A DNA stretch of 64,000 nt from Bacteroidales bacterium (GTDB lineage Bacteria; Bacteroidota; Bacteroidia; Bacteroidales; WCHB1-69), in assembly GCA_038210985.1 (NCBI GenBank), contig JBBQWB010000004.1, forward strand, positions 7,456 through 71,455, in the 5' to 3' direction. This document shows, one piece after another, positions 13,087 through 59,982 of the stretch. The position numbers and the translations under genes are program-made. Under the pieces are notes generated by a model that was not told the origin of the DNA, searched no databases, and was given only the letters and a program-made list of their open reading frames with translations. The stretch's first letter is position 1; each line of letters starts with the position of its first letter.

Positions 13087-13105
13087 TCACAGATATATTA
13101 AACCA

Positions 13106-13134
13106 GTTGTGCGAAGTCTGAGACTTCGCACAAC
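13106..13134. repeat. Perfect 13-bp-stem hairpin GTTGTGCGAAGTC-TGA-GACTTCGCACAAC, plus a second copy of its right half at 13153-13168
   Basis: Read directly. Lies 20 nt after the panD stop. Shares the CGAAGTC/GACTTCG core with the palindrome family at 28055, 44116 and 59882. Confidence 0.7.
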
Positions 13135-13169
13135 GTGTATTAATATATTGCCTGAGACTTCGCACAACA

Positions 13170-13396
13170 GGGGAAAAATCAGTGTTTGATAAGAAAACGT
13201 CAAATTCGAGGCTTTCGCAGCAACGAATTTAGTGAGTTCCGAATTAGATTTTGTATGTTTTAAATAGCTTTCACCCTTTAGATGGGGCAAATAAGACAAT
13301 TAAAACCAACAAAATCTTGGTCGGAATAACCTGAATTCGTTGCAAGTATAACAGCTTGTCCGACTTTTGGCGGAAAGAAGTTGGCGTTTTCTTGCA
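13170..13396 (-). repeat. Inverted copy of the ~280-bp intergenic element seen at 40099-40378
   Basis: The reverse complement shares long identical runs with the 40-kb copy: TCGGACAAGCTGTTATACTTGCAACGAATTCAG, ATTCCGACCAAGATTTTGTTGGTTTT, TACAAAATCTAATTCGGAACTC and CCTCGAATTTGACGTTTTCTTATCAAACACTGA. It lacks a ~50-nt internal segment. Terminal GTTTTCTTGCA lies at 13386-13396. Confidence 0.85.
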
Positions 13397-13400
13397 AACA

Positions 13401-14480
13401 TTATATATACTCGCTAGCTTCTATTTCACCATTAAGAATAAGATGTCCATTCATTGCTAGGGCTCTCATTTCGTCTTCGCCTGGATAAACCAAAACTGGA
13501 GCTAAAAATTCGACACGTTCCTTTACTTTTGCAACAAAAGGTTTTCCGTATGCAATACCACCGGTAAGTAGAATTGCATCTATTTTTCCTTTTAAAACAC
13601 TTGCCATTGCACCAATTTCTTTTGCAACTTGGTATGCCATTGCCGATTCCATTAATTCGGCTTTTTCGTCGCCAGCAGCAGCACGTTTTTCAACTTCGTA
13701 GGCATCGTTGGTTCCCAAATAAGCAACAAAACCACCTTTTCCTGTAATCATTTTCTTTACTTCGTCGTACGTGTATTTTCCACTAAAACAAAGTTTGGCA
13801 AGTTGACCAACTGGTAAAGTTCCACTACGTTCGGGACTAAATGGACCTTCGCCATCTAATGCTTGGTTCACATCTATTACTTTTCCTTTACAATGAGCAC
13901 CAATACTTATACCTCCACCAAGATGAACTACAATAAGGTTTAATTCTTCATATTTTTTGTTTGCATCCTTTGCGTATGTACGAGCAATTGCTTTTTGGTT
14001 CAGTGCATGAAAAATAGATACACGTTCAAAAAGCGGATGACCTGAAATTCTGGCTATGTCGTCTAACTCATCCACCACCACTGGGTCGGCAATAAATGCA
14101 CGCGAGCCAATAATTGATTTTGCAATGTCATTGGCAATTAACCCACCCAAATTGCTTGCATGTTCCCCGTTAATTCCAGCTTTTAAATCAGCCATCATAG
14201 ATTCGTTAACCGAATATACACCCGAAGGAATAAATTTGACTAAACCACCTCGTCCAACAATAATTTTCAACGATTGCAACTCTATATTATTTGCTTTGAG
14301 TTCTTCTAAAATGATGTTTTTACGAAACTCATACTGGTCGGTAATTTTTGCAAAAGGTGCTAGTTCTTCGGAAGTATGTTTAATGTTTTTAACAAAGATC
14401 TGTTCTTCACCGGCAAAAACAGCGATTTTAGTCGATGTTGAACCTGGGTTTATAGCTAAAATTAATTGATTTTGCGTCAT
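13401..14480 (-). CDS. buk: Butyrate kinase
   Basis: ILAINPGSTSTKIAVF is an ASKHA N-terminus; 359 aa; downstream of ptb in a typical ptb-buk pair. Confidence 0.9.
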   Translation of the reverse strand: MTQNQLILAINPGSTSTKIAVFAGEEQIFVKNIKHTSEELAPFAKITDQYEFRKNIILEELKANNIELQSLKIIVGRGGLVKFIPSGVYSVNESMMADLKAGINGEHASNLGGLIANDIAKSIIGSRAFIADPVVVDELDDIARISGHPLFERVSIFHALNQKAIARTYAKDANKKYEELNLIVVHLGGGISIGAHCKGKVIDVNQALDGEGPFSPERSGTLPVGQLAKLCFSGKYTYDEVKKMITGKGGFVAYLGTNDAYEVEKRAAAGDEKAELMESAMAYQVAKEIGAMASVLKGKIDAILLTGGIAYGKPFVAKVKERVEFLAPVLVYPGEDEMRALAMNGHLILNGEIEASEYI

Positions 14481-26105: not shown

Positions 26106-26177
26106 TTTCAAAATTTGATTAACAATGACTTGTGGAATAATAATTAAAAAAAATGATAAGAGCCTTTATTAAATGTA

Positions 26178-26185
26178 TAATTTTG
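26178..26185 (+). promoter_or_regulatory. Candidate -7 box TAATTTTG
   Basis: Matches TAnnTTTG. It lies inside the track ORF's first codons and 24 nt upstream of ATG 26209. Confidence 0.4.
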
Positions 26186-26208
26186 TTTTTAATCGAGAAA
26201 AACATCTC

Positions 26209-27504
26209 ATGAATACGAAAAAAATTAAGCTATTTATTGCATTTTTACTTTTAAGTTTAATCTTTGCATCTCCACTGTTTGCGCAGACAAAAGAGGAATT
26301 GCAACGTCAAAAAAAACTTATTGAAAACGATATTAAATACACAAATAAGCTACTTAAGGAAACTAAAAAAAATCAGAAATCATCTACCAATCAGATTGTA
26401 CTTTTAAAAAAGAAAATTGAACAAAGAGAAAAGCTGATTGAAACCATTACAAAAGAGATGAATTCGTTAGATGACGAAATTATTGGAAACACACAAACTA
26501 TTGAAAGTTTAAATTTTCAAGTAAAAAAGCTCAAAGATGAATATGCAAAGATGATTTATTATGCATATAAAAATCGAAAAAATTACGATCGAATAATGTT
26601 TGTTTTATCCTCTGATAATTTTAATCAGGCATATCGAAGAACACGATATTTTCAACTCTACTCATCCTACCGAAAGCGACAAGCATCTCTAATTGCGGAA
26701 ACACAAGAATCGATAAAAAATAAAAACAACGAACTTGAACAATTTAAAAATGATAAAGTTAGCTTATTAACTTCTCAACAAACCGAAAAGTCGAAACTTA
26801 CAAAAGAACAGACCAACAAGAATAAAACACTTACGGAATTAAACAAAAAAGAAAAAGAGCTTCGACAAACGTTGCAAGAGAAAGAAAAAGCAAGTAGAGA
26901 TTTACAAAACGCAATTGCTTCGATTATTTCCGAAGAAATACGGAAAGCAGAAGCAAAAAGAGTTGCTGAAAACAAAAAAAAGAACAAAACACCTGCAACG
27001 ACTAAAAACACAACCGAAACCAATAAAACAAATACCAATATTAAAACTCCTGTTAACACAATTTCGATGACACCGGATGAGAAAAACTTAGCAAATAGTT
27101 TTTCGGCAAATAAAGGAAAACTGCCATGGCCTTTGGAAAAAGGAGTTATTAGCTCGAATTTTGGTGAACATCCTCATCCAGTTTTATCAGGTGTAATTAT
27201 AAAAAACAACGGCATTGATATTTCAACAAGCAGAGGAGCTTCGGTTAGAGCCATTTTTAACGGTCTTGTATCGGGTGTAGTTACCCTTCCAAATGGAACA
27301 AAAGCCATTATTATTCGTCATGGGGACTACTTATCGGTGTATGCAAATTTAGTAAGCACAAGTGTTCACAGCAATGATAATGTGAAAACAAAACAATCTA
27401 TAGGAACCGTTTCAACCGATGAAGACGATGGAAAAACGGAACTTCATTTTGAGTTATGGCAAAACAAAACCTTGCTAAATCCAAATTTATGGATTGCAAG
27501 ATAG
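26209..27504 (+). CDS. EnvC-like murein hydrolase activator / M23 peptidase-domain protein with a long coiled coil
   Basis: Signal peptide MNTKKIKLFIAFLLL, K/E/Q-rich coiled coil, C-terminal LytM/M23 domain (GIDIS...IIIRHGDYLSVYANL). Confidence 0.85.
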   Translation: MNTKKIKLFIAFLLLSLIFASPLFAQTKEELQRQKKLIENDIKYTNKLLKETKKNQKSSTNQIVLLKKKIEQREKLIETITKEMNSLDDEIIGNTQTIESLNFQVKKLKDEYAKMIYYAYKNRKNYDRIMFVLSSDNFNQAYRRTRYFQLYSSYRKRQASLIAETQESIKNKNNELEQFKNDKVSLLTSQQTEKSKLTKEQTNKNKTLTELNKKEKELRQTLQEKEKASRDLQNAIASIISEEIRKAEAKRVAENKKKNKTPATTKNTTETNKTNTNIKTPVNTISMTPDEKNLANSFSANKGKLPWPLEKGVISSNFGEHPHPVLSGVIIKNNGIDISTSRGASVRAIFNGLVSGVVTLPNGTKAIIIRHGDYLSVYANLVSTSVHSNDNVKTKQSIGTVSTDEDDGKTELHFELWQNKTLLNPNLWIAR

Positions 27505-27718
27505 TTTTTGTAAGAAAACGCCAACATCTGTTTTTAGATTTGAGTAAAGCCTTGAAAAGACAACCCACTCGGTTGGAGTTTTAAACGATAAAGTTTTGTT
27601 ACACAGTGTTTCCTGAATTCGACAATGCTTCTCCCTGAATTCTGTATGTTTTAAAAAAGTGTCGAAGTCAAAAAAAAACGTATATGTCATTTTGAAGACT
27701 AAATTCACGAATTCATTA

Positions 27719-27908: not shown

Positions 27909-28046
27909 TTTGCTTAAAAAGCTAATTTTTGTTGAGAATGTTTTTCAGTTGATTACACGTTTAAAATAAAAAAAACCCCAACATGATTTTATAATGCCTA
28001 TACATACAGCCGTATATTATTGATCCATTTAGACACATTTGTGCGG

Positions 28047-28120
28047 TCATGATGATTCGCCACGGCGAAGTCGAAGCATCCGCAACCTCCTTCGACTTCG
28101 CCGTGGCGAATCTGGATGAC
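28047..28120. repeat. Palindromic intergenic element, copy 1 (perfect 22-nt arms)
   Basis: ATTCGCCACGGCGAAGTCGAAG (28055-28076) is the exact reverse complement of CTTCGACTTCGCCGTGGCGAAT (28090-28111). Confidence 0.9.
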
Positions 28121-28254
28121 TGCTCCTTTTGCTCGAATTTGTAATCCGAACTTAATTATAATCCAAAAAATTTTTGGTTGGTTAGGATTGCAAATCCGAA
28201 CAAGCTCTGTATTAGTAGATACAAAAATGTAAAATTTATCAGAAAAAAATCTAA

Positions 28255-39880: not shown

Positions 39881-39921
39881 AAATAATTAGTATTTGCAAG
39901 ATAACACTAGATTTTCTTGCA
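39881..39921 (+). repeat. Miniature (internally empty) copy of the 40-kb element: leader + left terminus + right terminus
   Basis: AAATAATTAGTATTTGCAAGA (39881-39901) matches AAATAATTAGTGTCTGCAAGA (40085-40105) at 19 of 21 positions. ATTTTCTTGCA (39911-39921) follows, against GTTTTCTTGCA at 40368-40378. Confidence 0.7.
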
Positions 39922-40084
39922 TGCACTACTTAACAAGTCGGTTAATCCACTACGTGGAATTTTCACATACGAGTTGGAGTTTTATTAAACGGGACTTCTA
40001 AAAATTCATTTCCTACGGGACAATTACACCGATACGGTTTCGTCATAAACATTAAAAAACCAAATTATACTTTGGATTAATTTG

Positions 40085-40378
40085 AAATAATTAGTGTCTG
40101 CAAGAAAACGCCAACTTTTTCCGCCAAAAATCGGACAAGCTGTTATACTTGCAACGAATTCAGATCATTCCGACCAAGATTTTGTTGGTTTTCATTTCTT
40201 TTTTTGCCCCAGCCCTCAAGGGTGAATGTAAATGAAAACGTACAAAATCTAATTCGGAACTCGCTAAATTCATTGCCGCAAAAGTGTTTCGACAGTTCGA
40301 CTTCGCTCAATGCATCGCTAGGCTCAAAATACCACCTCGAATTTGACGTTTTCTTATCAAACACTGAGTTTTCTTGCA
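40085..40378 (+). repeat. Full-length ~280-bp intergenic element with perfect 11-bp terminal inverted repeats (MITE-like)
   Basis: TGCAAGAAAAC (40099-40109) is the exact reverse complement of GTTTTCTTGCA (40368-40378). High similarity to the inverted copy at 13170-13396. Carries the core TTGCCCCAGCCCTCAAGGGTGAA (40204-40226) and a nested TTCGACTTCGC half-site (40296-40306). Confidence 0.8.
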
Positions 40379-40621
40379 AGGACTATGTATTGGTGCTACT
40401 TTCTAGTCCGTTAGGACTTTAACATTAATAAAAAAAAACCCTCTGAAAAATTTGTCCATAGGACATTAACATCGAAGCAAAGGCTTTAAGAATCCTTTAC
40501 GGATTTCTTTTTGTTACAATTTTCGTAAATCTAGAAGTTGTTCGTAAATTATTTTCCCATATATCCTCAAAAGTGGATTTTAACTTTTGATTTAAATTAT
40601 TTTCAAATCAACTGTTTTCTA

Positions 40622-44001: not shown

Positions 44002-44115
44002 ATTCTTTTCTGCTTGATTTAAGTATATTATTGAAACTCGCTTGATTTTTATAACCAATTGATGATTCAATAATACAAATCAAAAATGGCAAAGTTTCGC
44101 TCCAAAAAACTAGCC

Positions 44116-44195
44116 GTCATCCTGATTCGCCACGGCGAAGTTGAAGGAGACGGGAACCTTATGCAATCATGCTTCGACTTAGCGATAGGCTCAGC
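44116..44195. repeat. Palindromic intergenic element, copy 2 (right arm degenerate)
   Basis: GTCATCCTGATTCGCCACGGCGAAGTTGAAGGA, followed by ...AACCTTATGCAATCATGCTTCGACTTAGCGATAGGCTCAGC. The left arm is near-identical to copies 1 and 3. Confidence 0.8.
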
Positions 44196-59823: not shown

Positions 59824-59958
59824 CTTGCAGTCATCCTAAGTCAGATCGGAAAAATGTAAATATTCCCTTGCAGTCATCCTAATTCGCCACGGCGAAGTCG
59901 AAGGATGCGTAAACCTTACGCATTCATGCTTTGACTTCGCCGTGGCGAATCAGCATAA
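59824..59958. repeat. Palindromic intergenic element, copy 3 (long stem), preceded by a 16-bp direct repeat
   Basis: ATTCGCCACGGCGAAGTCGAAG (59882-59903) pairs with CTTTGACTTCGCCGTGGCGAAT (59929-59950) with one mismatch. Inner stem GATGCGTAA/TTACGCAT. CTTGCAGTCATCCTAA occurs at 59824-59839 and 59867-59882. Confidence 0.9.
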
Positions 59959-59982
59959 CCAAGCACCACCAATCAATTAATA

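Follow-up and report, generated by a model that had tools for sequence, protein, structure and literature searches.

The window analysed here is the whole stretch of 64,000 nucleotides, which corresponds to positions 7456-71455 of contig C4 of the source genome (G000), a sediment metagenome-derived assembly of 3.33 Mb with 33% G+C in 233 contigs. An intergenic element of 294 bp, belonging to the 291-nt form of a repeat family, is located at window positions 40092-40385, and its true ends were placed by alignment of 15 long copies taken from the whole genome. The element is bounded by the terminal inverted repeats TAGTGTCTGCAAGAAAAC (from 40092) and TAGTCCTTGCAAGAAAAC (reverse complement, ending at 40385). 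The initial annotation of this region had described perfect 11-bp inverted repeats, and these are indeed exact (TGCAAGAAAAC at 40099-40109 versus GTTTTCTTGCA at 40368-40378), being contained in a longer, imperfect repeat of 18 nt in which 15 of the 18 positions match. A second GTTTTCTT is found just inside the right end of the element. The inner second copy of a 9-mer is also present (CGTTTTCTT), at 40347-40355, one base away from where it had been placed originally. The parts of the element and the other members of the family in the window are as follows:

40088-40093, + strand: left flanking hexamer TAATTA, a target-site copy that is decayed relative to the right hexamer
40092-40115, + strand: left terminal inverted repeat TAGTGTCTGCAAGAAAACGCCAAC, conserved across Bacteroidota
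40116-40147, + strand: genus-specific spacer with a small hairpin, CCGCCAAAAATCGG, at 40121-40134
40148-40163, + strand: arm 1 of the central hairpin, CTTGCAACGAATTCAG
40164-40263, + strand: 100-nt palindromic segment CGATTACACCAGTAAACTCC, in place of the ancestral hairpin tip
40264-40284, + strand: arm 2 of the central hairpin, CTAAATTCATTGCCGCAAAAG
40285-40334, + strand: 50-nt extra module, the indel relative to copy B
40335-40365, + strand: inverted-repeat copy in internal (subterminal) position, CCTCGAATTTGACGTTTTCTTATCAAACACT, with which the left repeat actually pairs
40366-40385, + strand: terminal right inverted repeat GAGTTTTCTTGCAAGGACTA
40384-40389, + strand: right flanking hexamer TATGTA
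13173-13403, - strand: copy B, a 241-nt form without the 50-nt module, with its left repeat at 13386-13403
39888-39928, + strand: mini-copy of 41 nt, consisting of just the two terminal repeats, between TAATTA and TACTTA
27502-27525, + strand: solo left end TAGTTTTTGTAAGAAAACGCCAAC, whose TAG is the stop codon of the ORF at 26173-27504

The second, inverted copy reported earlier (copy B), at about 13173-13403, aligns with the element over its full length, only the 50 nt at 40285-40334 having no counterpart in it, and the arms of the two copies are 84-97% complementary. The left repeat of copy B abuts the stop codon of a butyrate-kinase gene, while a REP-like cluster at 13100-13165 has taken the place of its terminal right repeat. 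The internal ORFs of the element (43, 78 and 72 aa) are broken by the 50-nt indel and by other length variants, in agreement with the initial view that no ORF is conserved between copies. The stretch immediately to the right of the window copy (40404-40481) is itself repeated, with small differences, reaching a depth of 49 in a Logan contig as compared to about 10 in its flanks, and matches two places in a sister genome (G002).

The repeat is present in many copies. BLASTN reveals about 120 places in G000 when fragments are included, and 21 elements have both ends. Fuzzy probes made from the 22-nt left end, the 18-nt right end and the 24-nt inner repeat return 69, 73 and 38 matches, respectively, in the same genome, as compared to 0, 1-4 and 0 for the shuffled probes. 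A left-end 17-mer, exact or with one mismatch, occurs 47 times (reversed control, 0). In Logan contigs of the source sample, depths summed across the ends amount to about 565-590 and the flanks have a depth of 12, which corresponds to about 47 copies, and the depth of the long interior to about 20 copies. Many contigs of G000 terminate inside a copy of the family; together with the other repeat families nested in it, it breaks the assembly, and it fills intergenic gaps that might be mistaken for RNA genes or regulatory sites.

The 21 two-ended elements fall mainly into length groups of 163, 241 and 291 nt; forms of 88-232 nt are rarer. The conserved end consensus is TAGTGyyTGCAAGAAAAC(GCCAA), and its 18-nt part TAGTGyyTGCAAGAAAAC is found on both sides of the elements in G000 and of over 50 elements from other genomes. 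The ancestral core of the family is 146-163 nt long: the left repeat leads into a long hairpin that covaries, after which come a repeat copy in internal position and the terminal repeat. In the 163-nt form, the left repeat is followed by the genus-specific spacer with its small hairpin, then by the long hairpin GCAACGAATTCAGG...CCCTAAATTCGTTGC, then by the internal repeat copy GAATTTGACGTTTTCTTATCAAACACT, which is the actual pairing partner of the left end, and finally by the terminal repeat. The spacer (40116-40147 in the window copy) is missing in the 146- and 157-nt forms of other genomes. The 241-nt form results from an exchange of the hairpin tip for the 100-nt palindrome, and the 291-nt form from further addition of the 50-nt module. 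The palindrome is restricted to the 241- and 291-nt forms of G000 and its tip, GCCCCAGCCCTCAAGGG, is also common to another repeat family. The 50-nt module is found in only four copies of the family and also stands alone elsewhere in G000. Identical ends bound unrelated interiors: the 163-, 241- and 291-nt forms, a subfamily of about 370 nt with a different interior and minis of 36-41 nt in G000, and a 270-nt type in a long-read MAG (G167). About ten minis of 35-41 nt are present in G000, three of them with identical flanking hexamers.

Analysis of the flanks reveals the pattern TA nn [TAGTG...CACTA] nn TA, with an identical dinucleotide (nn) on either side. The hexamers are identical in 13 of the 37 end pairs of G000, as compared to 3.6 expected from permuting the right flanks, and none of 100,000 permutations reached 13. 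Because the non-palindromic hexamers (TAAGTA, TACTTA, TAGATA, TAAATA and TATTTA) are repeated directly and not inverted, they are duplications lying outside the inverted repeat. In other Bacteroidota, nn is identical on both sides in about 45 of 53 elements, including AC, GA, CA, CC and TG. Target-site duplications, which the initial annotation had proposed to look for, are thus present.

Empty sites were the other expected trace of insertion, and one was found with base precision. On contig C32 of G000, TAATTA[241 nt]TAATTA lies between convergent genes, and a single TAATTTA is present at the same place in the sister species G002, with the flanking genes showing 79-80% nucleotide identity. 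The conserved flanks are 7 nt apart at the empty site, where 11 nt would be expected had TA alone been duplicated. Seven is the distance expected if the hexamer was duplicated or, what amounts to the same, nn between TAs carried by the element. The target is TAnnTA, with either nn or the whole hexamer duplicated, both readings giving the identical sequence and empty site. The element is also missing in G002 at the counterparts of the C91, C60 and copy B loci, three sites that cannot be aligned base by base; at the copy B locus, matched flanks are separated by a gap of about 27 nt in G002 and by 308 nt of element and REPs in G000. At ten further loci compared with sister genomes, the flanks mostly lie on separate contigs or consist of repeats. 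No empty allele at the window locus and no polymorphic site were seen in the metagenome contigs of the source sample.

All complete copies in G000 are intergenic. Six of the 21 abut a gene 3' end, a position found for 6.8% of intergenic TAnnTA sites overall. The stop codons of the two convergent genes at C32 fall in the two copies of the hexamer, and that of the butyrate-kinase gene beside copy B is formed by TA together with the first element base, the G002 orthologue stopping at the identical codon. As TA at the end of the flank is followed by the G that opens the core, a TAG stop is restored when insertion occurs on a stop codon. Such regeneration of the stop would make copies abutting gene ends tolerable, and the TAnnTA target together with a core starting with G offers a simple reason for copies sitting directly on gene ends. 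The gaps holding copies in G000 are convergent in 16 cases and divergent in one; in other genomes the numbers are 13 and 17.

Taken together, copy number, target-site duplications, the empty site and absence of a conserved ORF support the transposable-element option of the initial annotation, and it is very probable that the element is a non-autonomous DNA transposon (MITE) of a Bacteroidota-wide family. MITEs are usually about 50-800 bp in length and non-coding; forms of the present family range from 36 to 370 nt, without kept coding capacity. In such a scheme, a DDE-type transposase acting in trans would bind the repeats, with one end of the element offering two binding copies and the other end one, and would make a short staggered cut between the two TA steps. 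The enzyme may be absent or dead in G000, in agreement with target-site duplications that have decayed, a divergence of 5-10% among the copies, and other repeats that have invaded copies. At 89-95% mutual similarity and with eroded duplications, the G000 copies stem from a burst that is old. The window copy is an old, immobile, composite and nested relic of such a MITE, without evident function.

The search for the transposase itself gave a different outcome. An IS with matching ends, for which the initial annotation had proposed a search, was found neither in G000, nor in about 800 kb of sequence from other genomes (115 loci of 8 kb), nor among the matches listed for the long-read MAG. IS copies are frequently missing from MAGs. 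In G000, ordinary genes lie between those ends that face inward 0.5-4 kb apart, with one match lying inside a Y1 gene, and ordinary genes also lie between such ends in the 115 loci of other genomes. Protein self-comparison of G000 reveals no multi-copy transposase. Two end-bounded units of 1.75 kb and 2.17 kb in G167 were considered as the parent and rejected: they are MITEs with a third type of interior, into which an IS110-family element has inserted. This IS110-family element, which encodes a 337-aa DEDD transposase, is located inside copies of the 270-nt MITE subtype, always after GGTCCCTGAGCG, and its third copy follows the identical 12-mer outside any MITE (L189:966-3131, L186 and L190 for the three), which suggests sequence-targeted insertion into the repeat.

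Of seven carriers tested, five have IS630-type elements (Pfam DDE_3). Those of G052 and Fulvivirga imtechensis are found on their own short contigs and have TAGTGT...ACACTA ends as in the MITE, but the match is confined to the outer 6-7 nt and the inner 20 nt differ. No IS630-type gene is found near any copy. Duplication of TA alone defines the IS630/Tc1-mariner superfamily; in the present family, the spacing of the empty site and the direct duplication of nn depart from that pattern. An IS630/Tc1-like enzyme is therefore a weak lead as the transposase of the family, and we regard it as possible but doubtful. All that G000 has of this type is a decayed DDE_3 gene split in two frames (C20:18700-19400; L174:1459-2155), with no recognisable ends nearby. 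Elements with a Pfam DDE_Tnp_1 transposase were also rejected as the parent, their ends belonging to other families. One of them, a 1.4-kb IS on C210 of G000 (L181:231-1634) that encodes a DDE_Tnp_1 transposase of 422 aa and has the 28-nt ends AATCACTGTTGTCCGATAAAAATTTAAA, is likely the parent of another MITE-like family of G000 with ends ...TTGTCCGATAAAA. The TTGTCCGATAAAA-ended family is multi-copy in the sister genome G003, and an IS in G167 has ends similar to those of the C210 IS.

A property that counts against a plain MITE mechanism is the interior hairpin, which is unusually conserved and folds better on the bottom strand; double-strand cut-and-paste does not predict a strand-biased, conserved hairpin. 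Folding of the element gives z = -4.2 to -5.5. An alignment of 27 elements reveals compensatory double changes in 15 of the 33 consensus pairs, an invariant hairpin tip (CATTTAC-nnnn-GTAAAC) and invariant ends, and conserved G-U positions. Among 43 distinct elements, the bottom strand is the more stable one in 41, the mean difference being 10.5 kcal/mol, and when the interior is taken alone it is better in 32 of 34, with 82 G-U pairs versus 42, although these counts are not independent, much of the asymmetry going back to conserved positions that all copies have inherited.

Because the covarying hairpin with its conserved tip, the fixed G-U positions and the bottom-strand bias persist across Bacteroidota orders, it could be argued that a folded single strand, of DNA or RNA, is needed for transposition or travels as a mobile structured module. 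An unrecognised and probably single-copy enzyme outside the conventional IS would then act on the element and would cut between the two TA steps. We consider this reading, the boldest of those discussed here, unlikely.

The same hairpin could be the functional part of a structured small-RNA gene family, or of a cis-acting RNA module such as an mRNA stabiliser, processing site or terminator, with the repeats serving as RNA helices. A structured-RNA gene family had been raised in the initial annotation, and the structure speaks for an RNA: strong folding, compensatory changes across genomes in nearly half of the pairs, conserved G-U positions, and a bottom strand that is more stable and has twice as many interior G-U pairs, the asymmetry again being largely inherited. 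Other observations weaken this reading, however. Orientation relative to co-directional neighbour genes is unbiased (30 sense and 22 antisense), and there is no Rfam match for the window at the gathering threshold or for three element loci at E <= 1. The window copy has no promoter- or terminator-like site inside, as judged with a tool that does not model Bacteroidota promoters. Moreover, the target-site duplications and the empty site indicate insertion, the copy number varies from 0 to about 195 between genomes, and interiors are exchanged while the ends are kept. An RNA gene family or cis-acting RNA module is thus very improbable, and the hairpin is better seen as a property of the mobile element, perhaps needed for its movement.

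Strand-asymmetric hairpin quality would also suit a REP/REPIN-like element that travels as single-stranded DNA, its hairpin being recognised on one strand by a transposase of the HUH kind (Y1, RAYT-like or IS200/IS605-like). The family resembles REPs and REPINs in being short, palindromic and intergenic, with strand-specific hairpins, its 36-41-nt minis of two inverted ends look like REP doublets, and a RAYT-like Y1 gene is present in G000. HUH transposition, however, leaves no target duplication, whereas here a variable dinucleotide or hexamer is duplicated directly and occurs as a single copy at the empty site. REPs also adjoin their Y1 gene; the Y1 gene of G000 (on C134) is flanked by a different REP, GTGCGAAGTCTCAGACTTCGCAC, and no Y1 gene is found beside copies in the roughly 800 kb of loci from other genomes. 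Movement by an HUH enzyme is therefore very improbable. As for the GTGCGAAGTCTCAGACTTCGCAC repeat, it forms tandem arrays on both sides of the small Y1/RAYT-like gene (C134:1-800), so that the repeat and the gene look like a REP/RAYT pair; it is this repeat that has removed the right end of copy B at window positions 13100-13165.

A non-mobile, protein-binding palindrome (an operator or nucleoid-protein site) fixed at its loci would agree with the perfect 11-bp palindrome formed by the ends and with the position of copies between genes, but is extremely improbable given some 50 copies without a common neighbour gene, sister species without the element at orthologous sites, duplications flanking the copies and length variants of 36-370 nt.

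Within known systems, the MITE family described here falls in the class of the Correia/NEMIS, ERIC and RUP elements. The Correia repeat, of 24-26 nt, begins with TAGTG after its TA, as does the core of the present family. Correia/NEMIS elements (CREE) of Neisseria are non-coding, intergenic repeats of 107 and 155 bp present in many copies (Delihas 2008, PMC2229807), which have terminal inverted repeats with a terminal TA, a target-site duplication and a long stem-loop, and whose size classes differ by a 50-bp internal segment (PMC2229807). The review does not mention any similarity of their terminal repeats to an IS, whether found or sought, and hence they have no linked transposase; for most repeats of the Correia/NEMIS, ERIC and RUP kind, which are non-coding palindromes of 100-200 bp with TA-ended termini, target duplications, long stem-loops and size variants set apart by an internal segment, no link to an IS has been found (Delihas 2008, PMC2229807). 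The present family belongs to another phylum, with no sequence relationship claimed, and differs from Correia in that the duplicated unit is nn or TAnnTA and not TA alone, that one end has two tandem copies of the repeat, and that the hairpin covaries across orders. The likeness to Correia would therefore be one of analogy and not of membership.

RUP of Streptococcus pneumoniae and ERIC/MITEEc1 of enterobacteria are imperfect palindromes of 107-127 bp with TA ends, like the present family, and internal insertions occur in ERIC-like copies as they do in the window copy. For RUP, mobilisation in trans by IS630-Spn1 has been proposed, since the two have their terminal repeats in common (PMC2229807). 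The IS630-type elements of two carrier genomes end in TAGTGT...ACACTA, as the present family does, with a match of only the outer 6-7 nt, and a TA-only duplication misfits the empty site of the family. Among Bacteroidota, MITE239 ('BrickBuilt') and MITE464 of Porphyromonas gingivalis are presented in PMC4596501 as inverted-repeat, non-autonomous elements. MITECca01 of Cardinium is likewise non-autonomous, with a parental IS of the IS982 family, and was not found in other sequenced Cardinium strains (PMC9769881); in contrast, the present family is spread over several orders of the phylum, and no parent was found for it. It may thus be regarded as a phylum-wide Bacteroidota counterpart of Correia/ERIC-type elements to which no transposase has yet been linked.

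The distribution of the family is patchy near the host and wide beyond it. The left-end 17-mer is found in 3 of the 22 genera scanned in the taxonomic family of the host, with 47 occurrences in G000 and 1-14 in the other carrier genomes, and is absent from most of these genera. Relatives in the same genus contain only diverged versions of 150-170 nt with different interiors, so the 241- and 291-nt forms represent a burst in the G000 lineage. An exact-pattern scan with one genome per species gives at least 115 loci, including many Bacteroidales MAGs, and labels of the matching MAGs also include Prolixibacteraceae, Draconibacterium, Paludibacter, Sphingobacteriia and Balneolales. Elements in these other genomes are mostly 146 or 157 nt long. 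No match to the element was found in plasmid or phage collections. A limited literature search found no description of this MITE family, and a bulk MITE census lists tens of thousands of unnamed candidates. The family, spread across several orders of Bacteroidota, thus appears to be undescribed. The kind of element is ordinary; noteworthy details of the family are the TAnnTA target, the doubled end, the hairpin with its covariation and strand bias, and the lack of a transposase.

When both ends are counted together, matches to the 18-nt end motif number 181 in MFD01721.bin.3.237, 152 in GWF2_35_48 and 24 in another MAG, with 0-1 matches for the reversed-pattern controls. The cultured carrier Fulvivirga imtechensis AK7 (G169) has 389 end-motif matches, which correspond to about 195 elements, and this copy number makes mobility and RNA-level effects testable in a cultured organism.

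A third repeat family, of palindromes built on GTCATCCTGATTCGCCACGGCGAAGTCGAAGG, is also present in the window, at 28043-28123, 44106-44183 and 59867-59960, and at C30 of G000 a copy of it takes the place of the left end of a MITE.
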